IMG/VR virus record: IMGVR_UViG_3300033516_000084
Location: 1 to 64,000 of that record
DNA: 64,000 nucleotides
DNA from: a virus
Strand: one strand, 5' to 3'
Position 1 is the stretch's first letter, and each line of letters starts with the position of its first letter. A model generated the notes under the pieces. That model ran no database searches. It saw nothing but the letters and a program-made list of their open reading frames with translations, and was not told the origin of the DNA. The position numbers and the translations under genes were made by a program. Of this stretch, positions 2,922-62,878 are shown piece after piece.

Positions 2922-2951
2922 AATAGTTCCTAGTCTGTGCAATTGATTGCA

Positions 2952-3173
2952 CTAAATATCAATGGTTACAGTGGGTAGGGCAGGGGCATCACCCTGTATA
3001 ACACCACCTTTTACAAATACAGATTTGCCCACCTCCGCCTTACCTCGGGCGATAAGCCTACCACCACCCAATAGGTTTACCATGTGGGTGTCCCCTGAAC
3101 TTGAGTACACGGTACCTATCATAAGTGGCTCTTTTGGTAAAAGTGACTGAAATAAGGTAAAAGCATTAGCCAT
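2952..3173 (-). CDS. Small tail-tip protein
   Basis: 73-aa ORF overlapping the stop of the upstream tail gene; ARG...VG..VFVKGGVIQG.AP.LP pattern of small tail-tip proteins. Confidence 0.6.
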   Translation of the reverse strand: MANAFTLFQSLLPKEPLMIGTVYSSSGDTHMVNLLGGGRLIARGKAEVGKSVFVKGGVIQGDAPALPTVTIDI

Positions 3174-6100
3174 AATGGGTCTCCAGTTCTACTGACTGCC
3201 TAAGATTGACCTGATTGCTCATGCTAACACTAACCCCTCTGACTAATCCCAGTACATAGTCAGTACCTTGAACATACTTTATCATCTGTCCGGGCTTGAT
3301 AATTCCGTTGGTCAACGGTGACACTGGCATACTTAGGCTTAGGGTGGCTATCTTTCCTGTGCGTGCCAGGATAGGTCTAGCGTACTGCCTAGCAGCCATC
3401 TGGTCGGTTATCAACTGGTGGGTCTCCATGGGTGCTAGATATTGGTTCTCACTACCTACTGAGGCAAGTTTTACATACGCACTGATGCCCGTAGATACCC
3501 CTGCAACATATACCGAATTGTACCTTGGTAGGTCTTCCCAAGCTATCCCCTCAGTTTCGATAAAAGAGGTCGGTATTTCCAGTAACCCGGTAGTCAGCCC
3601 TGCCCAATCCCAGGGTAAGGTGTTGTACACCGGCTTTATGTACAGGGTCTTGGTCTCTGGGTGGGGGTATAGGAACCCCCCGCAGGCTTTCGCCAGCTTA
3701 GAGTACGCATCAATGTAGGTACCGGACATACTCCAGGTGTTGGCAGGAACAAGCCAGTCATCCACTGCATCCGAGTTGACTACCCACCCATCGAAAGGTT
3801 CAGTATCATTGTTTGCCCTCATGATCGACTGCCCAACTATTTGTTTGTAATCCTTGTCACCGTCCACATAAAAGTCTACCTGACCACAGTAAGGAGCCCC
3901 AAGCCCTGCGGACAATCCTCTACCGGATACGCTGATACTAGACTTACCAAAAGACCGGCTCAAGCTCACTTTTTCCGCAAGTAAACTGAACAGTTCACCG
4001 TTGACTGAGGCGGTTAGCGGCGTAGGGTCGTACACTATACCATTAAATACCCTATCCAACTGGTCTCCGGGCATGGACGCACTGAATCCCCAAGCCCATG
4101 AATCCATGTCCAAGGACACACTAAACTGGGTGATTGGTAGCTCAACCATTCCGGCAGTCACATACAGGTGTACATCATTCATGATCGTATAAGAGGGTTG
4201 AACCGGTACTACGATGTTGGGTACGGTAGTGGGGACACCCACCCACGTACCTTCGCACTTAAAGTACAGGTCGGTTGTTATAGGGTAATCTGTACCAAAC
4301 ACCAGATTGGGGTCTGGCAGGTAGCAGACTTGGTGTGGTGGCTTAGTTGGGCCGATAGGACTACCCGGTACAGGACGTATTGCGTTTTGGTGGAACTCTA
4401 GCCACCTGAGTGACTGATGGTCACCGGTTCCATAACGTCCTAGGTAATCCTTGGATACCCTATCTGCCACCTGATGATAGGTGTCGACTATGCGCCGTAA
4501 TAACGACTGTCCTTGGTGCCTAGCCTGTGAGAAATACTGTGCTAGTACAGCGGTCTGGTGTGGCAGTGACTTAGCGGCCACGCTTATCCGTAGGGCAGAA
4601 CCTTCGTGTTCAAAAGTATAAGCACTGCTCTTCTTAGCATTCTGGTAAACACTAGACACCGGGCCATACGTGTGTACTAGGTTATACGTGGTAATAGTCT
4701 GCGCCCCTGATTTCCTGGTATTCGCCTGCTGCCACCCAGCCTCAATTACCTGACGGAGGGTTGAACTACTTTGATTTGTACTATTGAAGCCAGTTTCAGC
4801 CGTAGAAGCTACTTGATGTTTATTGGTGGTCGCATTAACATGGGGCCTCGCTACCGCTGGGTCATACAGGATAGAGGCACCTACTAGCGGGGGCAGCAAA
4901 ATAGCGGAAAACTCTACGAACGCCGGGGCATAGACCAGGGCGGTATTGCTGTCCCCTACTTCAAGGCCAGTGCTACCGTCGAACCCCAAGGACTCAATGC
5001 CCTCGGGGTAAACCACCCTAGCCCATAGAATAGCCTCTGGAGTTCCAAACTTGGTGTCTGGCTCAATACCCGTAGTGGTTATCCGGCAGTAGGCATGGCC
5101 TGTACCAAACTCTGCGCTATCTATCCCGCTAACGGCTACCGAAGACCCTACCTTTGGTAGTCCAAACTCTGTTGTCGAGGGTGTGCCCTGGGCAAAGGCC
5201 ACATAGGTGGTGGTTGGTACGCCAAAGCGTTGGCTATCCTGTCCCTGGGCATGGACAACATACGTGGTACTCGGTGTACCAAACTCGGTATCTGCTATTG
5301 AGCCGGGGTACAGGGCATCTGCCAGCAACTCTAGTTCTGGTACACCAAAGGCCGTACTACTGCTAATACCTGTAGGGCGTATATTCCACTGGGTAGTGAG
5401 CGCAGCCTGACCAAACTTAGTAGCTGGGACTATGCTCCCAACGGTCACCAGTATGTAATCATTCGACCCGAATACAAACTTAGTACCGTCTACCGAGTTT
5501 GGTATGGTCTCGGGCAGGGTGAAGTTTATGGTGGTGTTGGAGATTACATACGCAGTGCCTGTAGAAAATGACGGTACTCCTACTGAGTACACTGGGCTAG
5601 GGGCATACCCATGCCCAAATACCAGATCAGTAGAATCAGTACCTGCGGCGGGTGTTTGATTGAATACGAGGCCGTAGCTAGGGCCTATGGTTGGTACACC
5701 AAATACAAGGCCTGTGCCTTCTACAGGCTTTATAAATGAAAGATCAGACGCACCTATACCAAAGGTGAAAACCGTCCTAGACTCTGGACTAGGGTTAGGC
5801 TGGTCAAACAGGAAATTGGTGCCAGAAAAAACTGCTGGCCTTCCTAGGTAGTGCGGTGGAATACCGGAAGGGTACACCAGTGTTGGTGCGTGTATGATTC
5901 TAGGTAGGCCGTAGGCTGTATCTGGTTCGCCTATCACCAGCACCTGCTGTGATGGTATCAACCCGACTACCACAGGCTGTCCAGCGCCCGCTGGTGGCAT
6001 CCCCATCACCGTTAGCATGGTGTCCGGTGGGCCATCAGTATAGTGTGAGCCAAACTCCAGATCATAGAAGTCTGCGGGTAGATCGTCTGCGTAAAACTCC

Positions 6101-7188
6101 AGTTCTAGGCCACCACACTCAGCAGACTGTAGGTCACCAAACTCTGTAGACAGTAGACCGGGCACTCCTAATACTCTAGCTGGGGGTCTAGCTATACCAG
6201 CAGTACCAAACTTAGAACTGGGTATGCCACTGGTGGTCGTGTGAGTGTCGTACAACCATACATTGGGTTGACCATAGGCAGCACTATCAAACCCATTTAC
6301 CTGTAAATAGGTTACCCCCTCTACATAGAAGGGTGTATTAAGGGCCGTGGGTATCCTATAGTCCTGTAAAAACGAAAACTCTACTAGTCCGCCATTGGAA
6401 AGGACATCGTAGACCCTGGGTGTACCTATGCCTAGAAACTGACTGCCGGTTTGTGCAATTGATTGCGCGAGGTTACGAACTCCAGGTTTCCCTACACCTG
6501 CGGGGGGTATGGGGGCAGCGGATGCTACCTGAGCCCCACCAAAGGTAAAAGAGGGGGTAGAAGGTAGTGTGTACTGGGAATCAAACGCAAATTCTATCGG
6601 GCCAGTACTGCCTACCCTAGAGGCTCCAAATCCCAGTAAGTCCCCTACTGTGTTTGTTGCCACCAGTCGGGCGTTGTTAACTACCTTGGTAAGGCCAAAC
6701 TTTAGGGTGTTTCCTAGGGTAAGACCGGTAGACACTAACCCGGTACCAAAATACAGGCCTATATTTTTTGAATTAGTTGGTAGGTACTCGGTGGTGAACT
6801 CGAAGTCCTGTATACCAGTATCATCACCACGATAGGCCCTAGGAATCCCCACCCGAGGTGGTGTAATACTGGACACCAGTAGCTGGCGTGCGACATTCCC
6901 TACCGTTGGTACACCTATTTTAGACTGATTACCAGCGGATGCACCACCGATATTGAAGTACCCTCCAAAGGTAACCCCTACGTTGTATGCGGTAGGGGGG
7001 GAATACTGACCTTCAAAAGCCATCCATACCGCTGCACCCGTAGCGTCTGCATAGAAAACGGCGTTTGAAAACCCGAGTTTGGTAGACACCCAACCAACGG
7101 GTGCCACCGTAGCGGATACGTTGGCTACCCCCGCAGTACCAAACCGCAGGGTATTGCCTACACTGGCCCCCGCGATAGGTATCGCCAT
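3166..7188 (-). CDS. Large tail-tip protein (repetitive beta-rich N-terminus plus hub-like C-terminal domain)
   Basis: 1340-aa ORF with many G(I/F).S..FG.P repeats. C-terminal SLDMDSWAWGFSAS...RYNSVYVAG...HQLITD...ARQ region resembles siphophage tail-tip proteins. Confidence 0.65.
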   Translation of the reverse strand: MAIPIAGASVGNTLRFGTAGVANVSATVAPVGWVSTKLGFSNAVFYADATGAAVWMAFEGQYSPPTAYNVGVTFGGYFNIGGASAGNQSKIGVPTVGNVARQLLVSSITPPRVGIPRAYRGDDTGIQDFEFTTEYLPTNSKNIGLYFGTGLVSTGLTLGNTLKFGLTKVVNNARLVATNTVGDLLGFGASRVGSTGPIEFAFDSQYTLPSTPSFTFGGAQVASAAPIPPAGVGKPGVRNLAQSIAQTGSQFLGIGTPRVYDVLSNGGLVEFSFLQDYRIPTALNTPFYVEGVTYLQVNGFDSAAYGQPNVWLYDTHTTTSGIPSSKFGTAGIARPPARVLGVPGLLSTEFGDLQSAECGGLELEFYADDLPADFYDLEFGSHYTDGPPDTMLTVMGMPPAGAGQPVVVGLIPSQQVLVIGEPDTAYGLPRIIHAPTLVYPSGIPPHYLGRPAVFSGTNFLFDQPNPSPESRTVFTFGIGASDLSFIKPVEGTGLVFGVPTIGPSYGLVFNQTPAAGTDSTDLVFGHGYAPSPVYSVGVPSFSTGTAYVISNTTINFTLPETIPNSVDGTKFVFGSNDYILVTVGSIVPATKFGQAALTTQWNIRPTGISSSTAFGVPELELLADALYPGSIADTEFGTPSTTYVVHAQGQDSQRFGVPTTTYVAFAQGTPSTTEFGLPKVGSSVAVSGIDSAEFGTGHAYCRITTTGIEPDTKFGTPEAILWARVVYPEGIESLGFDGSTGLEVGDSNTALVYAPAFVEFSAILLPPLVGASILYDPAVARPHVNATTNKHQVASTAETGFNSTNQSSSTLRQVIEAGWQQANTRKSGAQTITTYNLVHTYGPVSSVYQNAKKSSAYTFEHEGSALRISVAAKSLPHQTAVLAQYFSQARHQGQSLLRRIVDTYHQVADRVSKDYLGRYGTGDHQSLRWLEFHQNAIRPVPGSPIGPTKPPHQVCYLPDPNLVFGTDYPITTDLYFKCEGTWVGVPTTVPNIVVPVQPSYTIMNDVHLYVTAGMVELPITQFSVSLDMDSWAWGFSASMPGDQLDRVFNGIVYDPTPLTASVNGELFSLLAEKVSLSRSFGKSSISVSGRGLSAGLGAPYCGQVDFYVDGDKDYKQIVGQSIMRANNDTEPFDGWVVNSDAVDDWLVPANTWSMSGTYIDAYSKLAKACGGFLYPHPETKTLYIKPVYNTLPWDWAGLTTGLLEIPTSFIETEGIAWEDLPRYNSVYVAGVSTGISAYVKLASVGSENQYLAPMETHQLITDQMAARQYARPILARTGKIATLSLSMPVSPLTNGIIKPGQMIKYVQGTDYVLGLVRGVSVSMSNQVNLRQSVELETHYG

Positions 7189-10603: not shown

Positions 10604-11709
10604 ACCGGGCCCTCGGTTGGTGCAATCAATTGCAGAGGCTGTACAGTGGCCACTGCCTGTATCCGGTCAGCTACCACCGACCTGTAGGACTCACTGTAGT
10701 CATAGGCCATGACCGTCCACTCTTTGTACACGTTCAACATGTGAAATAGGTAGTTTCCTTGTGCATCAGACCATGTTTCCCGTACTACCGTGTTACCCTT
10801 TGGGTCTATCAACTGCACTCTGCGGGCCACCGGTATGTTGTCAGGGGCAGCGGCTATGTTCAGCGTACCAACTATTTCACCAGTACCCCGGTAATAGGAA
10901 CTGGCCTTACCTACAGAAAGGTCCATATACCGGTAATGGTGTTTTTTGCCACTCCAATCACCTACGGGGGCGTTGAGTCGGTCAAACTCGTACATCACCT
11001 TGTTCAAGGTGCCTGCGGATGGGCCATTAGGACTAAGCAGGGGGCTGAATTGTTTATCAATCCAAGTACTTGCCGGTGGGTCAACAAGTTGTAGGTCAAG
11101 GGGTATACCAGACGGACTTCCTGAGGATACACGGTGAATACGGATAATAGAATCATATGTACATACACAGGGGTACAGTACGTGTGTATGGTTGTACGTG
11201 TGTTGATGTTGAAAACACAGCTTACCGTCCACGTAGTACCGCATTACACGAAGTGTGGGGTCGGTAGGGCTGCCAAGATACTCTACCCGTAGTACCTGCC
11301 TGTTGCCCACAAGGTAGCTGGGCCATGTGTATGGGGCTGATACTCCAACCCCCCCTATCTTTGTTTCACCACTAAACGCAGTAGGCCAATAACTAGACAC
11401 CCACAGGTCTTTGGTGTTCCTAAACGCCCACCCGGCAGCACTGGAGCCAGATGTTAGAGAAATTCCTACATAAGTATACTGATTATTGTAGTACCACTGA
11501 TCTTCTCCCAAACTAGGGTTAATAACCTCAATATCAGCCTCAAACCAGAAGTCTAGGCCAAGCACCTCGTTAAATCTAATCAACGAGTAACTGGTGCCTC
11601 CTTGCACGTCCAGGGCCTGGGACTCTGGATTCCATGCAATTGATTGCAGACCACCCAGTGCCGTATAGGTGGGGGCAGCGGGCGCGGTGTCGAACTGATG
11701 GTCAAACAC
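10600..11709 (-). CDS. Tail fibre-associated protein (lectin-like N-terminus, C-terminal ARRVQL...TWSDAQGNY.F domain)
   Basis: 369-aa ORF in the tail operon; the C-terminal domain resembles the segment at aa ~170-250 of 7199-9643. Confidence 0.55.
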   Translation of the reverse strand: MFDHQFDTAPAAPTYTALGGLQSIAWNPESQALDVQGGTSYSLIRFNEVLGLDFWFEADIEVINPSLGEDQWYYNNQYTYVGISLTSGSSAAGWAFRNTKDLWVSSYWPTAFSGETKIGGVGVSAPYTWPSYLVGNRQVLRVEYLGSPTDPTLRVMRYYVDGKLCFQHQHTYNHTHVLYPCVCTYDSIIRIHRVSSGSPSGIPLDLQLVDPPASTWIDKQFSPLLSPNGPSAGTLNKVMYEFDRLNAPVGDWSGKKHHYRYMDLSVGKASSYYRGTGEIVGTLNIAAAPDNIPVARRVQLIDPKGNTVVRETWSDAQGNYLFHMLNVYKEWTVMAYDYSESYRSVVADRIQAVATVQPLQLIAPTEGPV

Positions 11710-17160: not shown

Positions 17161-17213
17161 AGAGTTTCCGTTTTTACGTTGGGGGCCTGTGCAATTGATT
17201 GCACAGACTTGGG

Positions 17214-20200: not shown

Positions 20201-23200
20201 CATTAAAGGCCTCTAGTTCCCCTCGTTTTGTATCAGCAGCTTGCTTATCTTTACCAGATTGAATAGTAGAACGCTCAGACTGTACATGCTCTTCACGTTG
20301 GTGACGTAGCGCGTCCTCTACCTTCTTAGCATCAGCACCTACTGAACCCCCCTCTGCATGATAGTCCACCTCACCGCCCTCGGCAAAGGCAGGGCGGGCC
20401 AAAGACCTGTTTATGATATTGTCCTTCCCTGTGCTCTTGAGCCACGTAAGGCGCTCAGCCTCTCTAGTGCTCTTACTCTTGTCATAGGAGTCATCTACAG
20501 ATTGTAGGTCTCCCTGTGGACTCCTAGAGCGGGCTTTTGTGTAGGCAGTATAGGCCGCACTATCTTGACCAGACCACGAAGACTGGTTCGTTATTAGACC
20601 GGCACCAAAAGACGAGCTATCACTTGAACCCCCCTCTTCAAAGAACAGTGAGTCTACTTGGCCTCCGGTGGCAAACGCCTGCACCTCCCCCCCGGTAGCG
20701 AAGCCGTTGTACTTGGCAGTAATCTCTTTCTTGCCAAGCTCGAACTGGTACTGGGCCTCGATGGACCTGGCCTTGTCGTCTTCTTTTAAGGAGGTTATGG
20801 CGTTATTGGTTTGAATAACCAACTCAGTTGCTCTAGCCTGGTCATTAATATCCAGGGTTTCGTTATCGAATCTGAACTTGGAGGAATCAGACTGCCTCTT
20901 GGTATCGAATGAATCGGATAGGTCGGTATGTGCCCTAGCCACTAAGCGGGCATCCTCTACCTTCTTAGCCTCATTCTCAGAGTCCACTCTCTTACGTTGT
21001 AGATCAATCTGGTAAGAGTCTTCGATTGTTTTAGCAGCTAACTGGGTGGTAGCATCTTGAATAGAGTACCCTTTGGTTACCCCTAGTTGAGCTACGGTAT
21101 CCGAGTATGCTACATCAGCCCTTTCTACTTGGGCAGTTGTACCGGAGGAAATGGATTCCTTTGTCTGGGTCAAGGTGTCCATGAGCGTGGATATTGCCGA
21201 AGACCTGCTAGTAGGGTCGTCCATCTGCATGGCCTGCTTGTACTCAGTAGAGGCCGTGGTCTCTGCATCACGTACTGCCCTAGCGGACTCCAAGGCTATC
21301 TGGTCCTTACTACGTACTGTCTGTACCCCGGTATCGGTCACCTGACGTGTGTACCCGGTCTCAATACTTTGATAGGCCGTGGTCAAAGCCACGTCATTGA
21401 GTCTTGAGGACTCCTGTCTAGCTATCTCAAGGTTTGTTTTGACAGTCTCTACCGCCCTAGCACCTGAATCCACTAGGTCTTTGTAGTCCTTATCAATTTT
21501 GTTAGAGGCTGCTGACTGCTGTATCTGGTCTTCTGACTTAATGAAGTCAAAAGATCGTACTGCCGCCTTCTTAGTAGAGTCAAGGGTTACAGCGGCTACC
21601 CTGCTAGACTCTGAGCTATCTTTTTGAATTTTTGTTTCCGCTTTAGCGAGTTCAATTCTAGCTTTACGTTCATCCTCATTATGAGCCGTTTTTAGGGCAG
21701 ATAGGTCTGAGTTATAGGAACCCACAGCACCCCCGGTAGCAAACTTAGCCGGGGCTTTACCATCCTTAGGATGCTCTCTTGCCCAGCGGTCATCGTACCC
21801 CGTTCCACCCATAGAGCCGGGTGTTACTTTACCTCCAAAAGCATACCCACGTATTGGCCCGAGTATGGGCGGGGTAGCCCTCCTATTTCTAGACTCATTA
21901 AGGTAGTCAAAATCCACAGCCCTACCAAATCCTGGGTCTCCGGTAAATCCAGACCCCCTTGCATTACGGCTAACCTCTCCTACGTCCTCACCAACCCCAG
22001 CCCTACCAAATCCTGGGTCTCCGGTAAATCCAATGCCTCTTGTATAGTTATTACTATGTCCTGGGTCACCAATACCCACAAATCCAGGGCTCCCTGTTAG
22101 TACTGGACTTTTTTCATAGTGTTTCCTAAGTCCATCATCGCGCTTAGCCTCATTATCAACAACGGTACGGTTATATTTTGCACTGTGATTCTGATAGGCT
22201 TTCTGGTTTGCATACTCGCTTTCAAAATATGCCCTACCATTGGTATCCGCTGGCCACCAAGAGTTGGAGCCTGCGTAGCCACCGGTAGCAAATTTAGCAG
22301 GGTCACCTAGCCTAGCTTGATAACCACCCGTGGAGGAAGGTTGAGTCCAGCCAATCCTAGCCTTGTACCCAGTACCGGAGTCGGTGGTAGCCCCTAGCTG
22401 TCCAGGACCCTTGGCCCCTAACATACCAGGGCCAGTGGCTCCTAGGCGTGCAATTGATTGCACGGACACCCCGGCGGCACGGTTCTTTTCTTCCTCTTCC
22501 CGTATTTTCTGGTAAAGTTCACCCGCCTTTTGATCGTCACCTTTGGCTTTAGCATCATCATAGGCTGAATTTAGGTCGTCTAACTGGCTTACTACACCCC
22601 CTATAGCGAACTTACGTACAGGTGTTATACCTTTACCCGCATTGGCCTTATCCAGGGCCTTTTCATCGGCTATAATCTCGTCCCAAGTCTGGGGCGCTTT
22701 TTGTCCTGAGGCAACCATTATCTCCGCATTAGTCATCGGGGTCAGCAAAGATTGCTGATACGTTAAATCGGCAAAGTTGGCGGTTTTGGCTTGTACTTTT
22801 TTCGGGTCTTTATGGTTCCCCTTAGAATCTAGAGGGTTTTGTGCCTCTATCATAGCCTCATCAAACGTGCCCAAGGCTTCTGGCGGCGGTGGTAAGTAGA
22901 ATGTAGGTATCCCTGGAATTACCTTATACTCCTGCTTAGGCTCTTCTTTACCACTCCTACTAGAGGCTCTAGCACTCTTTGCGGTGGTGTAGGCTGTGGT
23001 AATAGCCGTTAGGGGTGCTTCATAGGTGGATGCGTAGTTACGCCTTATAGTCTCCTCTTCTGAGGGGGCAGTGGCTAGGGCAGCAGCTAGGTTGCTCTCT
23101 AATCTAGCCTTCCTAGCAGACAGCGCAGTTGAATAAATACGCTCAGCGGCAGCGTCCTCGGCAGCCCATGCCTTCGGGTCTTTGCTGGGGGAAGGAAAGA

Positions 23201-35384: not shown

Positions 35385-35528
35385 CTCGTTCTCCACACAG
35401 GTTAAAGGGTTTGTGTCTTTCAACACGCCCCTATCTTAGCACCCGTGGCACATACCTTTGAAATACTATGTGCAATTGATTGCACTAGGCCATAAAAAAA
35501 GGCCACTGGCTTTGGGTACGACACGGTT

Positions 35529-37749: not shown

Positions 37750-38181
37750 TTACCGGACAATGATCTTTGTTGACCACCGTTGTACCCACAAGGCTTTATC
37801 TGGAAAACTGTCTGAATATCCCTCTGATAGGAACTCCCAAGGGTGTCCTGCGGGTGAACTTTTTCCTTCTAGGGCAGTCCCCATTGCGTCCAATATATTG
37901 ATGCCCGGTATCTCCTGCACCACGTTGTCGGATAAGGATGTACTGTCTATTGCCATGTACAGACCAAAGTGTGCGGTCTTGGACACAGCTCTTTTGGTGC
38001 CACCGGGCTCAGGATTCCCTGTCATTCCCTCGTACACTATGCCTACTTGAGGCCCTTTTGCCCCTTTTATCATCCGTACCAGTTTCTCTGGGGTGTAGAC
38101 AATATGGGCCCTACCCTTTAGCTCTGCAATTGATTGCAGGGACTCCGTAATGTGCTGTAGGCACTGTTCAATTTTGGGCAC
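37750..38181 (-). CDS. Tail terminator-like protein
   Basis: ORF 37750..38331; probable GTG start at 38181 after CAGGAG; lies immediately before the tail tube gene. Confidence 0.6.
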   Translation of the reverse strand: MPKIEQCLQHITESLQSIAELKGRAHIVYTPEKLVRMIKGAKGPQVGIVYEGMTGNPEPGGTKRAVSKTAHFGLYMAIDSTSLSDNVVQEIPGINILDAMGTALEGKSSPAGHPWEFLSEGYSDSFPDKALWVQRWSTKIIVR

Positions 38182-39643: not shown

Positions 39644-39752
39644 TTAATACTCCTGTGGGTGAAAGACTTAGAGTGTACACCAGTATCGGGTACTGCAATT
39701 GATTGCGCTCAAAATAAGGGCAAGCCCCAAGTGTACCGGGCTTATCCACACC

Positions 39753-43686: not shown

Positions 43687-43739
43687 ACTGCCTCCTAGAT
43701 TGAATACGCAACTGATTGCACTGGTCGCAGCAACCTCTT

Positions 43740-44170: not shown

Positions 44171-44624
44171 ACTGAGGACTCCGGGTGGCGGCGTGCAATT
44201 GATTGCACAGGTCTTCGACTCTGAATATCTTAGAAAATCCGGTGAAAGGTTTCTTTGATTTACCAAAGTCCTTGGCAGCGGTACTAGCGTTCATTGCCTT
44301 CAGGTTAGCCCCTGAGTAGGTAGCTGGGTCATGTGTACCCTCCAGCACACCATACGCATGGGTGGCCGCATTGATGTGCGCTACGGCTGCATCAGAGTGG
44401 GCTTTCCTATTAGGAGAACCGCTCGGGTGCTTATCACCTGAGCTAATATGCCCGTTGATAGCCTTCTCATGCCCAGCAGCTTGGAGCTTCCAGCCCCCCA
44501 CCTCATGTGCAGGTAGTAGGTCACTGTATCGGGCTTTACCAGCGTGGGCCTTATTCCAGGCAGTCCAGTCCTTACGAACTAGCTCCAGTGGTTCATTAAA
44601 CAGGGTAGATATTAATGACTTCAT
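44163..44624 (-). CDS. His/Ala-rich head-associated protein
   Basis: 153 aa with strong AGGAGG RBS; KAHSDAAVAHINAA helical motif shared with 44633-45229. Confidence 0.65.
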   Translation of the reverse strand: MKSLISTLFNEPLELVRKDWTAWNKAHAGKARYSDLLPAHEVGGWKLQAAGHEKAINGHISSGDKHPSGSPNRKAHSDAAVAHINAATHAYGVLEGTHDPATYSGANLKAMNASTAAKDFGKSKKPFTGFSKIFRVEDLCNQLHAATRSPQYA

Positions 44625-45229: not shown

Positions 45230-45304
45230 CTTTGGTTCTTCCGTGAAATTGATTGCACAGGCAGGGCCGGTGGTACCCTGGTATTTTACATACACCTTTG
45301 GGTA

Positions 45305-48205
45305 TCACGATAGCCCTGTTTCGTCAAAATAATAAATACCTTCATACCGTACACCATTAAGCAGTAAGTCCAAGGTATTTTTAGACAAACCAATACTGCC
45401 AAGTTGTTTGATAGAGGATGGATTTACTGACAAAGTGACAGCCATGATCGCCGCCTCTTGCGCTGCTGTCAGCCTGCCTTTGGGTATGGATACCATGCCC
45501 GTGAGTAGGTCAGCCTGTACCTTGGCCCAATCACCGGCTTCTGGTACAAACCCTGCCATACTAAGCTCTACGGCGTTACCCGCTTGTACCTTTGCCGTGG
45601 CGTAGGCCGCACCCATACTGGGGTGTAGTTTTTTCAGCGTCTCCCACTCACCGGTAGTCAGCATAGTGGCTACCAACTCAGGGTGTAGCTCCATCCCACC
45701 TGTGCCAGTTCTAAACAAGAACCCCTTTTCTTTGGACTCACCCCATGCAAAGGCTATGTTATTACCACGGGTCACCCTGATCATCCCAGTTGCTGCGCCA
45801 AGTAAGGACGTTATCTTTGCACCGGTAAGGGACGATAGCAAGGTAACCGGGTCTACTCCGATGTATGAGTTCCACAGAGACAACTGGCGTGGGGTAACAC
45901 CTATGCCCAGGTCAGTAAAGGTTGTTTTAGTAGCAGTAAAGTCCGGTAGCACTTGGTTGACAGGCTTTGGCTTGGGGGCTTCCACAGGGTTTACCTGAGT
46001 GAGACCAGTAGCAGGGTTTACCGTTACCTCTACCGGGCGAATACTTGGCGGCGGTGGGGTTTGAGGCACGGTATTAACAGACGGTACCAAGGCCGTGGGT
46101 GTTGCGCTAGGTTTGGGCTTTTCCAACCTGCCTACGTGATCTAGCCTAACCATCAGCGTTCGGCAGTTTGACCCCCAGCTAATACGACCATTGTGGTTTA
46201 TGAGCAGGGTGTGGTTCTTTTCAAGAGTGACATCATACACAACCCCATCGTATTCACGAACCTGCAATTGATTGCACTTCTTAAATACGGTAGTCCCATC
46301 CCCCACTACCCAGTTATCGTGATTACACGCATACAACCCATTACCATGCTGGGTGTAAGTCCCTTTTGCAGAGCCTAATCTAATTGAGGGAGTATGTCCT
46401 AGTCTTATCAGTAACTCGCACAAGTCATCTCGCATACGAATAGACGAGGTAAAAAACACCCGTTCTGTGCTTTTATAGCCCAAAAACTTAGAGCCAGTCT
46501 CCCTAACGTGCCCATCCCCCAAGGCATAGGCTGCTAAGAACACGTCTATCAATTCTGGGCTTAAATTCTTAATAAATTGTGGCACAAACTTCTGGTGAGA
46601 TTTGCCGTACTGAAGGCACACTGCCCCGATATAGGTATCAGATACCACTATCTTGTGTCCGTATTTGCTTTCGTGCTTTCGTGCCTTTGGACACAATCTA
46701 AGCACATCCATAAACATCTTGTTTGCGTGTTTTGTTTGCGATATGACAGGGTAGTACGTGCCATTCACGTGAGGCTGTACGCTACCTTCCGATAGGTAGT
46801 AACCTAAGAACTTCAACAAGGATGGGGTATCCCTTTCACTCCCGGCAAACATAATTGACTGTGGCGATTCCCCTTTGTGTTTTGAGGATGTGTATAGTCT
46901 ATTTTCTACTTTGTTGGATAGGAATCCAGGTATGCCTCCGAACATTAGTTCAGTGCTTCTGCCAGCCTTACCATGGTCCACCCTTCTACCCCAAAACATT
47001 TGATGGTCTGGGGTTACCTCTAAACTAGCATCACCCCGTTTGTTGTAGAACTTAAAAACGTCCCCCTTATGAACATAGGCTATGTTCTTCACAGCGGATA
47101 CCCATTCAAGCTGGTGAGTGTTTGGATTCAATGACAAAAACTTGTCTACAGCTATGTCCACATCCTTAAAGTCTATAAACCCTCTTGAGGTGTAGACCTG
47201 TGTCCCTTCAACATAGCATCCGGGGTGGAAGGGTGGTGTCCCCAGACCCTTATCCTGTAGCTGCTGGGGGGTCATACGTTCATAGGCTTCCATGCTAGGT
47301 GTACTTTGATCTGGCCACGGGTGGATGGTCTTCAAGTCGTTGGGGTCATCAACGTACACCGCAGAGTCTAGGATTCTTTTGGCACTGTCTATGGTAAACA
47401 CCTTTCCATGTACCAGCCTACAAAATCGTGAGGTCCTGTTATCTAGCTGTGCGCTTAGTTTGTAGGTCTTGTGTCCCCGCATCTCAGACTCGGCCACAAA
47501 ACCCCATCCTGATAACCGGCTGGTGTGCAGGTTACTGATCATCTGGGCCATTGAATTGCTGTCGTCTTTGAATGGTACGAACAGTCTAATGGGGTCTGCC
47601 TTAGATAGGTTCGATACAGCTTTGGTTACAAGTAAGCCGTGCTTCCTAGCATTGGACTCAGACTCTGCGTCCATCGACACAGGAATTGATTCCACTCCTT
47701 GGTCTCTAAGCCACGCATAGCGGTGTCTTCCGTTCGAGAAACCCACCTCACCGTTGGCATCCACTCCAACATAAGGAGCTTCCATGTTGTCGTGGGGCTT
47801 TACCGTGAACGAGGTCTTATCATCAAACGGTTCCTGCCCACCATTGATGTACCTGCCAAACCGCTCGTACCGGTCTTTGATCTGACCATCACCATTTGGG
47901 CCGATGTAAAAATCCTTTGACTCGGAAAACTTGCGGTCAAACGCTGGAACCTTGAGGTGTACCAGCGGGTGGCCCATTACTGGGTCTACTCTTACCTGTT
48001 TGCCAGCTACATCAACGTATTGATTGCCTTGGAAAGGGTGGCCTTCTGCTTCTTTCTTTACAGAGGTTGCCATCCCATAGCGTACCTCTCCATCTTCAAA
48101 AACAAGGCGTACCATTTCATAGTCGTCCTTCTTGGCGGGTGTACCGTCTTTATTCAAATACTGAGCAATAGCTGCACGGCCCTCTATCTCCACATCTTCT
48201 ATCAT
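45305..48205 (-). CDS. MuF-type minor head protein (C-terminal part) with ParB-like insert and intein
   Basis: LDNRTSRFCRLVHGKVF...PPFHPG[intein]CRT MuF signature; upstream SNGRHRYAWL...G...IPV ParB/Srx-like motif. Confidence 0.8.
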   Translation of the reverse strand: MIEDVEIEGRAAIAQYLNKDGTPAKKDDYEMVRLVFEDGEVRYGMATSVKKEAEGHPFQGNQYVDVAGKQVRVDPVMGHPLVHLKVPAFDRKFSESKDFYIGPNGDGQIKDRYERFGRYINGGQEPFDDKTSFTVKPHDNMEAPYVGVDANGEVGFSNGRHRYAWLRDQGVESIPVSMDAESESNARKHGLLVTKAVSNLSKADPIRLFVPFKDDSNSMAQMISNLHTSRLSGWGFVAESEMRGHKTYKLSAQLDNRTSRFCRLVHGKVFTIDSAKRILDSAVYVDDPNDLKTIHPWPDQSTPSMEAYERMTPQQLQDKGLGTPPFHPGCYVEGTQVYTSRGFIDFKDVDIAVDKFLSLNPNTHQLEWVSAVKNIAYVHKGDVFKFYNKRGDASLEVTPDHQMFWGRRVDHGKAGRSTELMFGGIPGFLSNKVENRLYTSSKHKGESPQSIMFAGSERDTPSLLKFLGYYLSEGSVQPHVNGTYYPVISQTKHANKMFMDVLRLCPKARKHESKYGHKIVVSDTYIGAVCLQYGKSHQKFVPQFIKNLSPELIDVFLAAYALGDGHVRETGSKFLGYKSTERVFFTSSIRMRDDLCELLIRLGHTPSIRLGSAKGTYTQHGNGLYACNHDNWVVGDGTTVFKKCNQLQVREYDGVVYDVTLEKNHTLLINHNGRISWGSNCRTLMVRLDHVGRLEKPKPSATPTALVPSVNTVPQTPPPPSIRPVEVTVNPATGLTQVNPVEAPKPKPVNQVLPDFTATKTTFTDLGIGVTPRQLSLWNSYIGVDPVTLLSSLTGAKITSLLGAATGMIRVTRGNNIAFAWGESKEKGFLFRTGTGGMELHPELVATMLTTGEWETLKKLHPSMGAAYATAKVQAGNAVELSMAGFVPEAGDWAKVQADLLTGMVSIPKGRLTAAQEAAIMAVTLSVNPSSIKQLGSIGLSKNTLDLLLNGVRYEGIYYFDETGLS
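46166..47218 (-). mobile_element. Intein with LAGLIDADG homing endonuclease in MuF (351 aa)
   Basis: Starts CYVEGTQVYTSRG; block B VTPDHQM; LAGLIDADG-like FLGYYLSEGS and YALGDG; ends VYDVTL..NHTL...GSN followed by Cys. Removal restores PPFHPGCRT. Confidence 0.92.
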
Positions 48206-49443
48206 GCTTTTGGCCCCTGTACATAGCTGGTGTTTAGCTTGTCATACAAATCCTGCCACTCTTTACCCAGCCCTTTACGGGCAACAGGTCCTAAGGTTGC
48301 CATCTCTGCTAGAGTCTCGTTTATGGCATGTATGATATGTCTAGAGTTTGTTTCAGAAGACTTCCACCACTCTCGACTATAAGCAGTAACCCCATCCGAC
48401 ACCTTTAAGGTCTCGTAGTTTACAGCAAATTGATCAGTAAAATCTGTGTCCATTTGAGCCACCCTGAACTTGTGGTGGGTGAACTCATGTTGCAATACCT
48501 GAGCTATAGCCGTTGGGTTATCCATTTTTGATGGGTACACGGTTATCCTGGGGGGAGAATCTTTACTAGCTCGCGTATAGGAACCGCCATAGACCAAGCT
48601 CTTCCCATTCAGGTTAAACATTTTTGTTTCGTAGTCTGGCACCACCTCAATACCGTCAGGAATACCAAGAGTTTTAGCTACTGCTTTTACATAGCGCTCT
48701 ATGCCTTCTTCAGAAGACATATCGTGGGAATGATGCGCCCATCCATACTCTGACACCGTACAACCGAGGGCTTTTCCCACAGGCCCTGCCCATTTTTCGG
48801 CATTTAGCTCAGGCTCCTCCAAAATGTCCTGCTTGTCCATGTCCGAGTACAGGGGGTTATCTGCTACCTCTTTGTCATACCAATCCTTAAAGGCTTTTTT
48901 AACTAATCCGGGGTCTATCTTCGGGTAGGCATCAACCGCTTTTCTAGCCAACTCAGTAGGGGAGCCTTCAAACCCACCAATACCCCCTGTGTATTGATTT
49001 CCGTGAAAAGAATGACCCTTAGCCTCTTTTTGAATCTGAACTTGGGTACCAGCTTCTCTAGCTCGTGCAATTGATTGCAGTAGCTTGCGTTGGGTCTGTA
49101 ACGTACCGTTGTACTGTAGGTACTGTCGTAAATGGCTTAAAGACTTATCCACCGTCTTATCCAATGGTAGGCTGGCTATCATACTGGCCCTACCTCCTGC
49201 CGCCATTGATGCCCCGTATTCTATGGCAGCTCTCATCAAAGCCCTAGAAAAACTCACTACAATCGAAAATACTGGCTCTAATGTAAAAGATTCTGCTGCC
49301 ATGATCGCAAGATCAAAGTCATTATTTTTTAGATGTTTTGCATTGGTATTCCAAGCCTCGGATATAAGTGGATGTAGAGCACTCTGGAGTTTTTCAGACA
49401 ACATACGTTCTATATCCAAAAAATCTTCTATTCGCGTAGTCAT
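48202..49443 (-). CDS. Minor head protein N-terminal-like region fused to HExxH metallopeptidase-like domain
   Basis: Helical N-terminal ~140 aa, then KEAKGHSFHGNQYTGG, then VLQHEFTH...GVTAYS...NETLAE zincin-type motifs; coupled (ATGA overlap) to the MuF gene. Confidence 0.65.
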   Translation of the reverse strand: MTTRIEDFLDIERMLSEKLQSALHPLISEAWNTNAKHLKNNDFDLAIMAAESFTLEPVFSIVVSFSRALMRAAIEYGASMAAGGRASMIASLPLDKTVDKSLSHLRQYLQYNGTLQTQRKLLQSIARAREAGTQVQIQKEAKGHSFHGNQYTGGIGGFEGSPTELARKAVDAYPKIDPGLVKKAFKDWYDKEVADNPLYSDMDKQDILEEPELNAEKWAGPVGKALGCTVSEYGWAHHSHDMSSEEGIERYVKAVAKTLGIPDGIEVVPDYETKMFNLNGKSLVYGGSYTRASKDSPPRITVYPSKMDNPTAIAQVLQHEFTHHKFRVAQMDTDFTDQFAVNYETLKVSDGVTAYSREWWKSSETNSRHIIHAINETLAEMATLGPVARKGLGKEWQDLYDKLNTSYVQGPKA

Positions 49444-50132: not shown

Positions 50133-53064
50133 TGATGCTTTCTGGTGTACAGTATGAGCTTAAAAGTTGGTCAAAAAGGGCTTTAGTTTCAGGCTCTAGG
50201 GCATCAACGCTTTTCTGTACCAGTGCCTTATCCGCATCAGTCATTGAAATTAGAGGTTCTACCAAATTTTCAGCTTCTGCTGTACGTCTCACCAATTTCA
50301 GTAGTTGTAAAGTAGATACTTCAGACTTAGTGACTTTCACGGGGGTATGAGCCTTTGGCCCTTCTTTTTCTGAGTCACCCGGTTTTGGTAAAATAGTTCC
50401 TGGAGGCAATGGAGTTGTGTAAGGAAGGTTTGTGTGCGGATCGACTTTTGGCTCTGGCAACACCGGGGCTTCTGGCGCGGGCGCTTCTTCGGGGGCAGCG
50501 GGCGCTTCTTTGTATTTAAGGTCGGTGCCTAGGGCGGCATTAACTGCGGACACAAAGTCTTTCTTCTCCACCATCTCGGCCACCAGTGGTAAGCCCTTGA
50601 ACAACTCCTCAACGGACTTCATGGTAATCGGCAGGCTACGGAATTTGATGGTCTTGTACCCAAAACCTTTCATCAACGTCTTGTTGATAATCTCATCAAA
50701 CTCAGTGCGTTCGGGCTGGAATACCTGTGCCTCTGCCACTTGGTAAGCGATTACTGCCGTTGCGTAGGAGTAGTCGGTAGAGTTCCCAGAGACTAGCACC
50801 TTTCCATTTCTACGAGTGACTAGAGTACCTTTAGGCATGGTAAAGCAGTGTACTTTCCCGGTGTAGGGTACTGCGTACATTTGCTTAGAAGGTTTTAACA
50901 TGTGGCACTCATCAGTATGAACCCCCACATTCCAAATAGCATGCCACCCCTCCTGCCTTTTATACCTCTTAGCCGTAGAGGTCATACCCAACCTGAAACA
51001 CAACTCCTGAACATCCCCCGCCAACCCCTCGGAGGTAGTGGAGTATGTAAAGGAACCGGGTGATGCGGTGCTAGAGCAGTCCGAATGAAGGCTACCGTCC
51101 CCTTCTACAAGAGCATTTAAAATAATTTTCAACTGTCTAGTTGATAGACTGAAAACGAACCTGGGTATTCTTTTATTGGAGGAACCCCCACCACACTCTT
51201 CTCGTAGCCAATCATACAGACCGCCGTGGCATACAGACACACTTTGTTGATTTCCCCTAGATACAATTAACCCCGGAGTAAACCCCATACTGGATAGACA
51301 CCTAACCATCTTGGTTGCAACTTCTCCAGTATTCTGTGATAGGGATATAGGGCCTCGTACATCCACGGGAGTGCTTCCCTCAGCTATAAAGTAGCCTAAG
51401 AAAGCAAGGAAGTCGTCCATAGGCACCTGATAACCACTGCCAGTTGCCAGAGACTTGTAGTACCTCTTCAAATCTCGGGTAGGGTTTTTTGAAGGCATCC
51501 CAGGAGTCCACGCATTAGTTCTGGTGTTGGTGGGTATATTAAAGTAAGAAACCTCGTCACCCTCCCACCCTGCTGAAGTGGGGAACTCAATATGGCCCCC
51601 TAAACCACCCTTAATTGATAACAAGGAATCGGCGTGTACCTTACCCCAAGGCATGGCATCACCCCCCCTAGTGGAAACATGGCGCACTACCATAGCGTGA
51701 TTAGGGGTTATCAAAGCATCAATTCCCCTATTTTTCAAATGTACTAAATCACCTTCGTAATCATAAGAATGGTGGGCTGTGGGCGTATCGAAAGACATTT
51801 TATTAGTGTTCAAATCTACTTGCGCTAACTGTAGCCCAATGGCCTCATCAAACATCCTCCAGCCCTCAGAGGTTAGATATTCGGTATCCTCAGAATGACA
51901 CCTACCTATAAACAGCGGGGGTAGTCTAAAGCCAACTCGTACATGCTCCTCTGCGCGGGTGTCGTATTGGGCGTACAGGGCATCCCCTTGGTTGGTGAAC
52001 CGTTCTACCCGTGCGCTTACTGTGCCACTACTATCCAGTGACCCACTATTGGACATGAGTTCAACCACTACTGCCCTGCCCTTTTTGCGGTTGCTGGAAC
52101 TCAAGTAGGTACGCAATTGATTGCTGGCATCCCCAACCATCTGTCCACCTTGGATAAAGATGATCGCAGGCGGCATACCACCGGCATCAAACAGTTCAAG
52201 ATTGGCCTCCTCAGCTTTTCTGGAACCCAGTACGGACGGTAATTGATTTATCCACCGGGGTATGGAGTAGGGACTTGTTGGGTCTTTGTCCACCCCGAAG
52301 GCCAGTACCTCTGAAGCACGTTTATCCGCTGGCAGGGTAGTACCTTCCTTGGCCCAGGCCCCAGTATGTCGGTCTAGGTCGAGCGGTACACCAAACTCTT
52401 TGAAATACTGGCGACTAACCCCATTAAACGTCTGCATGTACTTGCGTGGGCGTTCCTTGATGGATATAGTAATGTCGTTACCCCCTCTGGATACCACGTA
52501 CTTCGTATCCACGGGGTCTCCCAAGCGGACTAGGCGTAAGGTCTGCCCCTCTAGGTAGCGAGTACCGACGATAGAACCGTCCATAGTTCTCAGTACCTCT
52601 AGGAACCCATAGCCCATGGATTCAAGGTCTTGCCTGATCAACCGGCGTTGGGTAATGAATGACTTACCGGGGTAGGGCTCTGCAAAGAAGGCTCTGGCCT
52701 GTACCAGTTCTTCTTCATTAATTTCAGTATTGTCATCCATCTTGACAAACTCATGCCCTGTGCCATCAATGTTCACCTCCATCGCTTGGATACACTGATT
52801 CAAGATATTGTTCTGTTTTGCCAGTAGTTTAAGGGTTTTAGGCGGGTAAGGTGGCATAACTGCCAAGTTACTACCCCCTGTTCCTTGGGTGAAGTACAGG
52901 TTGACAAACTCGTCCTCTATGAGTCTCTCTGCATCCGCCATAACAAGGTAGGTGTCGCCTTTAATAACGCGAGAAACCACAGTTAACTCTGGCTGTTTAA
53001 TAGTTTTGGTAATAGGCTTAGCTGTCTTTATAGGGGGTGTAGGGGTCTTGATAGAGATTGACAT
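50116..53064 (-). CDS. Portal protein (PBSX-like) containing an intein
   Basis: PPYPP..L......N.IL.QCI.AMEVNIDG.G; DLE..G.G.LEV.R; Y..PRWI.QLPSVLGSRKAEE.N...FD.GG.P; FRLPPLFIG[intein]STDYSYATA. Confidence 0.9.
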   Translation of the reverse strand: MSISIKTPTPPIKTAKPITKTIKQPELTVVSRVIKGDTYLVMADAERLIEDEFVNLYFTQGTGGSNLAVMPPYPPKTLKLLAKQNNILNQCIQAMEVNIDGTGHEFVKMDDNTEINEEELVQARAFFAEPYPGKSFITQRRLIRQDLESMGYGFLEVLRTMDGSIVGTRYLEGQTLRLVRLGDPVDTKYVVSRGGNDITISIKERPRKYMQTFNGVSRQYFKEFGVPLDLDRHTGAWAKEGTTLPADKRASEVLAFGVDKDPTSPYSIPRWINQLPSVLGSRKAEEANLELFDAGGMPPAIIFIQGGQMVGDASNQLRTYLSSSNRKKGRAVVVELMSNSGSLDSSGTVSARVERFTNQGDALYAQYDTRAEEHVRVGFRLPPLFIGRCHSEDTEYLTSEGWRMFDEAIGLQLAQVDLNTNKMSFDTPTAHHSYDYEGDLVHLKNRGIDALITPNHAMVVRHVSTRGGDAMPWGKVHADSLLSIKGGLGGHIEFPTSAGWEGDEVSYFNIPTNTRTNAWTPGMPSKNPTRDLKRYYKSLATGSGYQVPMDDFLAFLGYFIAEGSTPVDVRGPISLSQNTGEVATKMVRCLSSMGFTPGLIVSRGNQQSVSVCHGGLYDWLREECGGGSSNKRIPRFVFSLSTRQLKIILNALVEGDGSLHSDCSSTASPGSFTYSTTSEGLAGDVQELCFRLGMTSTAKRYKRQEGWHAIWNVGVHTDECHMLKPSKQMYAVPYTGKVHCFTMPKGTLVTRRNGKVLVSGNSTDYSYATAVIAYQVAEAQVFQPERTEFDEIINKTLMKGFGYKTIKFRSLPITMKSVEELFKGLPLVAEMVEKKDFVSAVNAALGTDLKYKEAPAAPEEAPAPEAPVLPEPKVDPHTNLPYTTPLPPGTILPKPGDSEKEGPKAHTPVKVTKSEVSTLQLLKLVRRTAEAENLVEPLISMTDADKALVQKSVDALEPETKALFDQLLSSYCTPESINAHNH
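50782..51900 (-). mobile_element. Intein with LAGLIDADG homing endonuclease in the portal (373 aa)
   Basis: Starts CHSEDTEYLTSEGW; block B ITPNHAM; FLGYFIAEGS and ALVEGDGS; ends VHCFTMP.GTLVTRRNGKVLVSGN followed by Ser. Confidence 0.92.
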
Positions 53065-53318
53065 AGCATAGTCCTGTTGGGGTATGGGTAGATTCTACTA
53101 TGCATACACCTACCTGCTACCACAGTAATTCTGTACGTCTTCTAGCTTGCTGTGATAGGCGCATTTTCAACTTTCACCCACTTCGCTGCCCTACAGTGGA
53201 TTACATACTGGCAACATGCACTTGTCGAACTCTTTGAAAGATGGCTACTTCTAGGCCTACTTCCTGAGTTATCAAAACTTTTGAGAATATATTTTCAGCC
53301 TACTGCAATTGATTGCAG

Positions 53319-53583: not shown

Positions 53584-53610
53584 GCCTTTTTTACACAAAT
53601 TTCGTGTAAA

Positions 53611-55875: not shown

Positions 55876-55939
55876 ACCCCGAGTGTATCCCACCTACGCC
55901 CAGGCAGCTAGACCCTTGTCAGTGCAATTGATTGCACGC

Positions 55940-61053: not shown

Positions 61054-61121
61054 ATTCAATCCTTCTAGGGTTGTGCAATTGATTGCAGCCCATTTTGTGG
61101 GCCGCGAGTAGGGTAGTGAGG

Positions 61122-61422: not shown

Positions 61423-61459
61423 CAACCCACCACCGGGTGCATGGTGCGGCCCTGGGTGC

Positions 61460-61822: not shown

Positions 61823-61881
61823 CGCCCTCTGTGGCTGTAGTGGACTCCTCCTATGGCTTGCATGGTGCGTGCCTGGGGCAC

Positions 61882-62168: not shown

Positions 62169-62169
62169 T

Positions 62170-62271
62170 TTCAGTCCTTTGAAAGTTTGGGGGGGGTAAG
62201 CGGCTTTTTAGGGCCTGGGGTAATTATATATCAGTTTGCCAAGGTTTTAACTGATTTTGAAAATATATTTT
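62170..62271 (-). promoter_or_regulatory. Cassette header (copy j); 102-bp exact repeat of 60527-60628
   Basis: Direct sequence identity to copy g. Confidence 0.88.
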
Positions 62272-62599
62272 CACTTCTTCTGGCTGGCGGCATCCTCTCC
62301 TCAAGGGTGTTGCATGGTGCAATTAATTGCACTCGTCCACACCCAAAATGCGTGGGTATTCTCCACCAAAACGTGGCTGTGTTCTGGTTTTCAGTGCTTA
62401 AAAATTAGGCAGAAAACACGGGGTTTTGACTTCCAGTGCTACGGCTTGCATAGCACTAATTGAAGCGCACCCAAATCGCGTTGGGGGCAGCAGGTGGCAG
62501 TCGGTGGGAGATATTAGGACAGGTGCTTATTTTTTTGTGTGCCGGGCTTGTACACCCCTTGCCAGTGCAATTAATTGCAGTTGGCAAGTGCAATTAATT

Positions 62600-62878
62600 T
62601 CACATCAGGCGCAGGTAGTTCTTGATCGTCCTCTTGCGGGTAGGGGTGTCGCTAAGTCTCACCCAGCCCTCGGTGTACTTCATATCCTCTGCAAAGGCGG
62701 CAATAAAGTCGCGGGGGGTAAGCCAGCTTTTACCTGCATTGTTTTTGTGGTCTCCCAATATGTCGGCACCCGCTAGTTGCAGTTTGTCGATCTTCTCCAT
62801 GGCCCTGGCCTTGGCATCATCAAGCAATTCCGTAACCCTTTTTTTCAAATCGTCCATAGATTCTTGGTCGTAGTCCAT
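62600..62878 (-). CDS. Hypothetical protein (92 aa, MDYDQESM...)
   Basis: The protein-like part of ORF 62600..63022 starts at Met49; weak RBS. Confidence 0.6.
   Translation of the reverse strand: MDYDQESMDDLKKRVTELLDDAKARAMEKIDKLQLAGADILGDHKNNAGKSWLTPRDFIAAFAEDMKYTEGWVRLSDTPTRKRTIKNYLRLM

Follow-up and report, generated by a model that had tools for sequence, protein, structure and literature searches.

The 64-kb stretch analysed here (the window) is the first part of a 100,966-bp viral contig from IMG/VR (IMGVR_UViG_3300033516_000084), whose completeness is estimated at 66%, and it carries a short, near-palindromic DNA site in many exact copies. These 14-mers are real and strongly selected in this genome, and they are spaced more evenly than random. 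The site is apparently undescribed before, and its scope is far broader than the original prediction, made from the letters of the window, could see. We consider it an even call whether the copies are evenly spaced putative binding sites of a dimeric, phage-encoded protein with DNA-binding of the ParB/KorB type, for which our leading candidate is an unannotated protein family that we call X. Binding of the sites by a protein, the identity of this protein as X, its dimeric state and the purpose of the binding are all points that we infer. Below, G000 denotes this genome and G001-G010 are related IMG/VR phage genomes used in comparisons.

Sequence, number and selection of the site

An exact scan for the 12-mer GCAATTGATTGC returned 18 copies in the window, 16 on the + strand and 2 on the - strand (at 10622 and 35780), which reproduces the count, places and co-orientation (at least 18 copies, 16 of 18 in one direction) of the original prediction. 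The whole record holds 30 copies, 28 on + and 2 on -, and the pattern read backwards occurs in it 0 times; 100 dinucleotide-preserving shuffles of the window also gave 0 copies. Variants with one mismatch lie in the window at 43708, 45245, 62319 and 62567, and those with two mismatches at 31345, 47682 and 62590. Alignment of the 30 copies defines a 14-bp core, T-GCAATTGATTGC-A/G, with TGCAATTGATTGCA as its commonest full form: the base at -1 is T in 29 of 30 copies, and the base at +12 is A in 22 and G in 7. Further out, G at -2 (18 of 30) and C at +13 (21 of 30) are preferences only; of the 12-16 bp first proposed, the 14-bp core stands and the full 16-mer is merely the commonest form, not the rule. 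The site is a near-palindrome in which inverted arms of 6-7 bp flank a non-palindromic TG centre. In every genome that keeps the strict motif the centre is TG throughout, with 0 TA or CG centres among the 24-50 sites that each carries.

Shuffling synonymous codons within each gene, with the amino acids kept, gave an expectation of 0.43 sites (maximum 4 in 300 shuffles) against the 20 found in called genes, and codon choice has therefore been bent to write the site. In-gene copies use every stop-free frame and are read as xQSIA, CNQLx, AINCx, xQLIA and AIDCx. The proposal that the constraint falls on DNA rather than on protein thus survives a codon-shuffled control. Neither strand of the 12-mer was found in a relevant context in a literature search, we found no mention of the site for phages DLP5, DLP3 or Summit, and the DLP3 and R. 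capsulatus phage papers do not speak of palindromes.

Spacing and placement relative to genes

Sites are on average ~3 kb apart in this genome, and the gaps have a coefficient of variation of 0.57 versus ~0.95 for random placement (P about 0.001). Across six genomes it ranged from 0.46 to 0.68 versus the same random value, with P < 0.005 in five of the six. Intergenic copies make up about one third of the total, although short gaps account for < 10% of the DNA, and they mostly lie 1-20 nt past the upstream stop codon and 15-50 nt ahead of the next start. The suggestion that they are tied to -10-like boxes did not hold, as they have no fixed relation to promoters and usually sit just past a stop codon.

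We rejected the possibility that the 14-mer is itself a promoter element, as the early promoters are a separate repeat relative to which it has no fixed position. These promoters consist of a -35/-10 pair with an A/T-rich upstream element, GAAAATATATTTTC; the 12-mer AAATATATTTTC occurs 23 times in the contig. The early-promoter unit is found on the - strand at window positions 61340-61425, 61760-61830, 62225-62275 and 63100-63170 and further along the contig, and comprises the upstream element (GAAAATATATTTTCAAAA...), and a -35-like GTTAAA or AGTAAA that is separated by 17 nt from a TATACT-like -10. Outside the window, two 14-mers (contig positions 66412 and 85134) directly adjoin the upstream element of an early promoter.

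Related phages and lineage variants of the site

The major capsid protein of this phage is ~61% identical to those of the Stenotrophomonas phages DLP5, DLP3 and Summit (genus Delepquintavirus) and 46-55% identical to those of Rhodobacter phage RcZahn, Rhizobium phage TM16 and the Vibrio SSP002/VHS1-like phages. The contig lacks the terminase genes and the helicase-primase-RecA-RuvC module present in relatives, which fits its completeness estimate.

The site recurs across this large and very diverse clade of tailed phages of ~95-100 kb, cultured members included. Numerous IMG/VR contigs of 93-99 kb proved on scanning to carry several 14-mers, and in many IMG/VR phage genomes the density of the site is 1 per 2-4 kb. 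Copies in whole records numbered 40 in G001, 50 in G002, 24 in G003, 37 in G006, 47 in G007, 20 in G008 and 26 in G010, with 0 for the reversed-word control. Site-bearing genomes range from 47 to 62% in guanine-cytosine (GC) content and have few proteins in common with our contig, at 25-60% identity. Among cultured phages, DLP5 has 27 copies, Summit 26 and DLP3 24, largely at the same positions and in the same orientations.

Other lineages use variants. RcZahn has 5 copies together with TA-centre variants, and G005 favours a variant with a CG centre. Phage TM16 uses GTGCAACATATTGCAC (14 copies), in which the palindrome is broken by one transition, and Vibrio phage 1 uses TAATTGCAA (17 copies), with one half perfect and the other loose; in further related contigs the form is GCAACTGATTGC, GCAATTGGTTGC or one with G..C as the outermost pair. 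All of these variants retain the TGCAA/TTGCA arms, which fits a specificity that evolves with the phage.

Host chromosomes and Paraburkholderia islands

When one genome per prokaryotic species was scanned we found almost only single chance matches, the exceptions being the end of a Comamonas scaffold and a Paraburkholderia genome. The former, the last 5 kb of Comamonas testosteroni SWCO2 scaffold 10, contains the site 5 times along with a head protease/scaffold gene homologue, and has the look of a related-phage fragment that was joined to, or assembled with, a bacterial scaffold. Most of 151 Paraburkholderia genomes had 0 copies, and about ten had a cluster of 3-12 copies within 1.5-18 kb. 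Such clusters occurred only in islands of 10-18 kb. The seven that we examined are low-GC (53-57%) islands of about 15-18 kb with 5-12 exact 14-mers each; one such island lies at 47-66 kb in Paraburkholderia elongata C163. The islands share an integrase, and six of the seven have a small excisionase-like open reading frame (ORF). Several encode TerS, TerL, a replication initiator and an endonuclease VII-like protein, and the cargo of another comprises ADP-ribosylglycohydrolase, DUF4145, NOV_C and Sel1 genes. Some islands have no protein in common with the phages yet carry the same 14-mer.

Judging from their gene content and the shared site, the islands look like candidate satellites of DLP5-like phages. 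There is precedent for such an arrangement in the island SGI1, which is reported to hijack the parABS system of its IncC helper plasmid by way of the helper's ParB-binding sites (PMC10954446). Our case differs from SGI1 in that the satellite status of the Paraburkholderia islands is read from genes and site together.

Outside the islands the site is missing from the sampled Paraburkholderia chromosomes, and we therefore rejected a host-wide word such as Chi, an uptake sequence or an iterated palindrome. The site is not an artefact either. The lack of the word in host chromosomes further speaks against a host factor. We regard as very unlikely the possibility that a conserved host protein, recruited by phages and islands alike, binds the site. 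It would account for the same 14-mer being found in Stenotrophomonas, Burkholderia/Paraburkholderia and unknown-host elements across the whole GC range given above, and for its presence in islands without any protein in common with the phages, but chromosomes are essentially without copies outside islands, the site changes between phage lineages, and its outer base preferences are phage-specific.

Symmetry of the site and its flanks

The base pair next outside the core is preferred symmetrically and in a genome-specific manner: G..C in G000 and G003, C..G in G001 and G006, and T..A in G002 and G007. Within a genome, however, the two flank sides vary independently, with no covariation, and in seven genomes flank pairs were no more complementary than shuffled pairs. 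This combination favours a two-fold symmetric protein with drifting specificity over a conserved stem. Taken with the lineage variants and the lack of the site in host chromosomes, the symmetric flanks leave a phage-encoded, symmetric (dimeric) binder, as originally put forward, as the best reading.

It is extremely improbable, in our estimation, that the site works instead as an RNA or single-stranded DNA hairpin, serving as a processing, priming or termination signal. Its arms can pair, forming 5-6 bp with a 4-nt loop, and 7 of the 30 sites in this genome carry T..G as the outer pair, which would pair by wobble on the + strand only. We rejected this reading nonetheless: no flanking pair covaries in the seven genomes, compensatory changes are never seen in the arms, most genomes have sites in both orientations, no T-run follows the site, and half of the sites lie deep inside genes.

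Candidate binding proteins

Protein clustering of eleven genomes left few universal families: the polymerase, portal/MuF, helicases, RecA, the terminase, a protein with a ParB_N domain, and X. Family X (type DLP05_067 of DLP5; ~265 residues, unannotated) occurs in each of the 10 other phage genomes examined and in Vibrio phage 1, and 2 islands have a divergent form of it. Its homologues number > 270; every one is labelled 'hypothetical' and lacks Pfam domains, and many are on contigs of 95-120 kb. The closest is on a 98.8-kb Burkholderia ubonensis contig. Pfam and PHROGs gave no match for X or for the other conserved hypothetical proteins of the replication module, and a profile search of X against PDB sequences gave none either. 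A protein-atlas search offered weak leads only, to DUF3102 and a ParB helix-turn-helix cluster at 0.84.

The AlphaFold model of X (predicted local distance difference test score 82) is all-helical with a disordered N-terminus (residues 1-30). Aligned with VIA-align, its residues 41-167 match ParB-parS at Z 8.1, Spo0J at 7.5, KorB-operator complexes at 7.1 (structure 1r71) and 6.2, SopB at 5.0 and P1 ParB at 4.5. We view this predicted match to ParB/KorB DNA-binding domains as middling (Z 7-8 for the helical domain) and suggestive. X is without the N-terminal nucleotide-binding (CTP-binding) domain of ParB. Its most conserved segments, a basic helix-turn-helix RKAxYL..IY followed by a GWTKxK helix, are kept at 25% overall identity, and their persistence parallels that of the TGCAAT arm.

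The second candidate is the ParB_N protein (DLP05_107-like; ~280 residues), which is present in every complete relative and whose gene adjoins the large terminase gene in DLP5 and is the first gene of the RcZahn record. Foldseek matches it to truncated ParB, Noc and KorB over the N-domain and the DNA-binding domain (E ~1e-8), KorB structure 8qa9 being matched at E 1e-8. Its nucleotide box reads GGHHR (conserved GGHHRWE), not GERRxRA, and its putative recognition helix is acidic. We take GGHHRWE to be closer to the sulfiredoxin and serine-kinase branch. Orphan ParB-fold proteins of unclear role are common in phages and may bind ATP or GTP (PMC12704722). Gene X is directly adjacent to the ParB_N genes in G003 (49483-53948) and ~1 kb away in G004 (43792-46568), and this proximity hints at joint action. 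The orphan ParB_N protein may act with X, or instead of it. With both candidates predicted to have ParB-superfamily DNA-binding folds, the analogy to parS/KorB-type sites drawn in the original prediction gains support.

The nearest known counterpart is KorB of the IncP plasmid RK2, which has 12 KorB operators (O_B) in 60 kb, placed in promoters, far from promoters and inside genes. As in RK2, a short palindrome is repeated replicon-wide, and the candidate binders would share the ParB-type helix-turn-helix. In contrast to RK2, the sites here are 2-3 times denser, evenly spaced and mostly in genes, and their centre is asymmetric; X lacks the CTP-binding N-domain, and the ParB-like protein has its GGHHR box in place of the GERRxRA of ParB and KorB. 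Noc of Bacillus, ParB-parS and SopB-sopC of N15 offer a further likeness in their scattered palindromes of 14-16 bp, which ParB-superfamily dimers read, and N15, with its four dispersed sopC centromeres, is a plasmid prophage, as is DLP5. These systems differ in having far fewer copies per kb and in sites unrelated in sequence to ours (both parS and Noc sites), and nothing seen here speaks for partition.

Several observations weigh against X, or any symmetric dimer, as the explanation: (i) Foldseek of X gives nothing significant (E about 1), its most probable rows being ParB structures; (ii) in VIA-align a RuBisCO assembly factor scores as high as ParB folds against X; (iii) sites with <= 1 mismatch occur in 31 of 36 X-bearing IMG/VR loci (0.04 expected per 10 kb), but X was used to fetch these loci within one clade and the co-occurrence is not independent of common descent; (iv) gene X has a site 20-105 bp ahead of it in 6 of 10 genomes (among these sites are the sole TA-centre copy of DLP5 and one of RcZahn), but in the wider loci only in ~7 of 35, and rates are similar for other gene families; (v) X of G003 is very divergent (26% identity) and yet goes with the standard site, whereas X of RcZahn is closer and goes with variant sites; (vi) 5 of 7 islands carry sites without X, and their hosts have no X-bearing phage, which fits satellites awaiting a helper but equally allows another binder; (vii) neither the X nor the ParB_N gene is on our incomplete contig, and that this phage has them is an assumption based on relatives; and (viii) a symmetric dimer explains neither the asymmetric TG centre, never TA or CG in strict-motif genomes, nor the 28:2 polarity of this genome. 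With regard to (iv), we did not count autoregulation of gene X by the upstream site, as the wider rate (~1/5) is what intergenic enrichment predicts. With regard to (vii), no cognate gene had been recognised in the window, and indeed both candidates are absent from the whole contig and present in every complete relative.

Orientation and readings built on it

Nearly all genes of the contig are on the - strand. In G006 the polarity is 2:35 with genes on the opposite strand, hence the same sense as the 28:2 of G000 (codon scores mark most minus-strand ORFs of G006 as shadow ORFs). Counts in the other genomes were 23:17, 33:17, 11:13, 32:15, 9:11, 7:19 and 8:19; orientation is near random in G001, G003 and G008 and merely ~2:1 in G002, G007, G010 and the DLP5 group. 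Every genome leans the same way relative to its main coding strand. GCAATTGATTGC has TGA in one frame and its complement is stop-free in all frames, from which a lean of ~60:40 is expected for in-gene sites, and this accounts for the mild universal lean. The near-total bias in G000 and G006 extends to intergenic copies, and the polarity of these two genomes is therefore real; as nearly all genes are on one strand in both, it is not separable from the direction of transcription. In G001, G002 and G003 orientation is without relation to gene direction. Both reversed copies in the window belong to the two shortest gaps (308 and 1,014 bp). The idea of a polar site system is thus true of this genome, but with mixed orientation in most relatives polarity is no property of the system. 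The switch between polar and non-polar genomes, like the strict asymmetric centre, is not explained by any known system.

These features raise three alternatives. The first is that the site is the target of an enzyme, a phage nickase or base-modifying enzyme acting on one strand at the asymmetric TG/CA centre; we hold this to be unlikely. T5 and Pseudomonas phage tf have strand-specific nick sites, and these resemble ours in being short conserved sequences repeated on one strand of a siphophage genome of ~100 kb. They differ in that most relatives here use both strands. No strict-motif genome departs from the asymmetric centre, the TM16 variant is once more a palindrome broken by a single transition, 28 of the 30 sites in this genome would put the event on one strand, and these genomes have many HNH endonuclease genes. 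Furthermore, DLP3 DNA withstood 15 restriction enzymes (PMC7326821), which means that DNA modification takes place in this clade. Set against this are the near-equal strand numbers in most relatives, the symmetric CG centre of G005 and the TA centre of RcZahn; we tied no conserved nickase or methyltransferase to the site, and general hypermodification needs no 14-bp signal.

Alternatively, the site could be a polar signal for a machine that moves along DNA, either Chi-like, taming an exonuclease or loading RecA on phage DNA, or marking the direction of replication, packaging or ejection, which we consider rather improbable. Consistent with this idea are the strong co-orientation in G000 and G006, intergenic copies included, and the even spacing; relatives encode RecA, RuvC and helicases, the ParB-like gene stands beside the terminase gene, and islands that encode terminase also carry sites. 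Nevertheless, a signal of this kind is hard to reconcile with the random or weakly biased orientation of the other genomes, and the TGA effect alone predicts their lean. Hosts are without the site, hence it is not a host Chi, and known Chi and KOPS sites are 5-8 bp long and non-palindromic.

The third alternative, which we judge improbable, is that an immunity repressor binds the sites prophage-wide and blocks transcription in lysogeny, as with the stoperators of cluster A mycobacteriophages (L5 gp71). Here too there are dozens of sites per genome, of 13-14 bp in cluster A, lying in genes and short gaps, and in G000 and G006 they have a single orientation relative to transcription. Both DLP5 and DLP3 are temperate phages, the former with a prophage that persists in plasmid form (PMC5834331, PMC7326821). 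However, cluster A stoperators are fully asymmetric, are bound by a monomeric repressor and always follow transcription, whereas our site is a near-palindrome of mixed orientation that is independent of gene direction in three genomes. In addition, the 14-mer core is identical in phages with almost no common genes, and specificities of immunity tend to diverge; we saw neither a repressor nor an integrase on this contig; and islands keep sites without a resident phage.

A working model

We favor the possibility that a phage-encoded, two-fold symmetric protein binds the dispersed 14-mers, each subunit reading one TGCAAT arm. Selection keeps one site every ~2-4 kb genome-wide, in genes and between them, and every stretch of phage DNA would thereby carry a bound protein landmark. 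The most likely use would be genome-wide nucleoprotein organisation or control, such as global transcription control, counter-silencing or plasmid-like handling of the genome. Paraburkholderia islands would copy the sites, plausibly so that the helper phage's protein treats the islands as phage DNA.

A fairly unlikely extension of this model is that the sites and a ParB-domain-like binder form a 'this is phage DNA' mark that separates phage from host DNA during infection. Such a mark might spare DNA from a phage nuclease, keep host silencers off or feed modification or packaging machines. Islands would then forge the mark to pass as helper DNA, and the asymmetric centre and one-way orientation would reflect a directional step.

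Sites, variants and neighbouring genes

The table lists the sites and variants in the window. Its last three entries are TA-centre copies, two of which are perfect palindromes. They fall within 285 bp of early-region DNA that is apparently non-coding (62318-62602), and there are no TA-centre copies elsewhere in the contig. This cluster could be a nucleation, centromere-like or operator cluster. Small early genes adjoining it gave no informative match in Pfam or PHROGs.

Positions of the 14-mer site and its variants in the window
Feature	Position	Strand
Site TGCAATTGATTGCA, intergenic	2938..2951	+
Site, A/G variant at +12, within tail gene 3166-7188	6454..6467	+
Site, reverse orientation, within gene 10600-11709	10621..10634	-
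Site within gene 10600-11709	11635..11648	+
Site, intergenic; 11 nt past stop of 5845-residue ORF, 30 nt ahead of next start	17190..17203	+
Site within 5845-residue ORF	22449..22462	+
Site within 5845-residue ORF	27465..27478	+
Site in gap or small ORF 35420-35581	35471..35484	+
Site, reverse orientation, 308 bp from preceding site	35779..35792	-
Site within gene 37750-38331	38125..38138	+
Site, intergenic	39694..39707	+
Site within gene 44163-44624	44194..44207	+
Site within head-morphogenesis (MuF-like) gene 45305-48205	46263..46276	+
Site within gene 48202-49443	49066..49079	+
Site with outer bases C..T (sole exception to T..A/G), within portal gene 50116-53064	52112..52125	+
Site in 546-bp gap following portal gene	53304..53317	+
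Site, intergenic; 4 nt past stop, 30 nt ahead of next start	55923..55936	+
Site, intergenic; 15 nt ahead of start of gene 60739-61059	61074..61087	+
One-mismatch variant GCAACTGATTGC (main form in some related contigs)	43708..43719	+
One-mismatch variant GAAATTGATTGC	45245..45256	+
Perfect-palindrome variant TGCAATTAATTGCA, non-coding stretch of early region	62318..62331	.
Perfect-palindrome variant TGCAATTAATTGCA	62566..62579	.
Degenerate variant TGCAATTAATTTCA, 23 bp from preceding variant	62589..62602	.

Other features of the contig may be noted. A single ORF of 5,845 residues occupies window positions 17214-34751 (- strand) in the tail region and holds two of the 14-mer sites; its N-terminal part is ~37% identical to the far shorter proteins at the tape-measure position of G001 and G002. 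Intein and HNH insertions are found in the portal gene (50116-53064, - strand) and in the AAA ATPase and DNA polymerase A genes (contig 66999-69050 and 71076-76130). The contig also encodes, at 89287-93590, two large proteins with ADP-ribosyltransferase (exoenzyme-type) domains, one of them fused to an anti-CBASS Acb1 domain, and nearby an HDAC-like protein and a truncated PPDK-like kinase without the barrel domain.

Significance

If the working model is correct, a large and widespread clade of siphophages of ~80-120 kb, including DLP5, DLP3, RcZahn and the Rhizobium TM16-like and Vibrio SSP002/VHS1-like phages, would share a genome-wide DNA-protein system that has gone unnoticed. DLP3, a member of this clade, has been proposed for therapy. 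The sites are exact, numerous and present in cultured Stenotrophomonas phages, which makes the system directly testable. A function would be assigned to an unannotated family with hundreds of members, and the ParB/KorB world would be extended to a protein that consists of the DNA-binding domain only and has 25-50 sites per genome. The site would also serve as a sequence tag linking candidate satellite islands to their likely helper phages.

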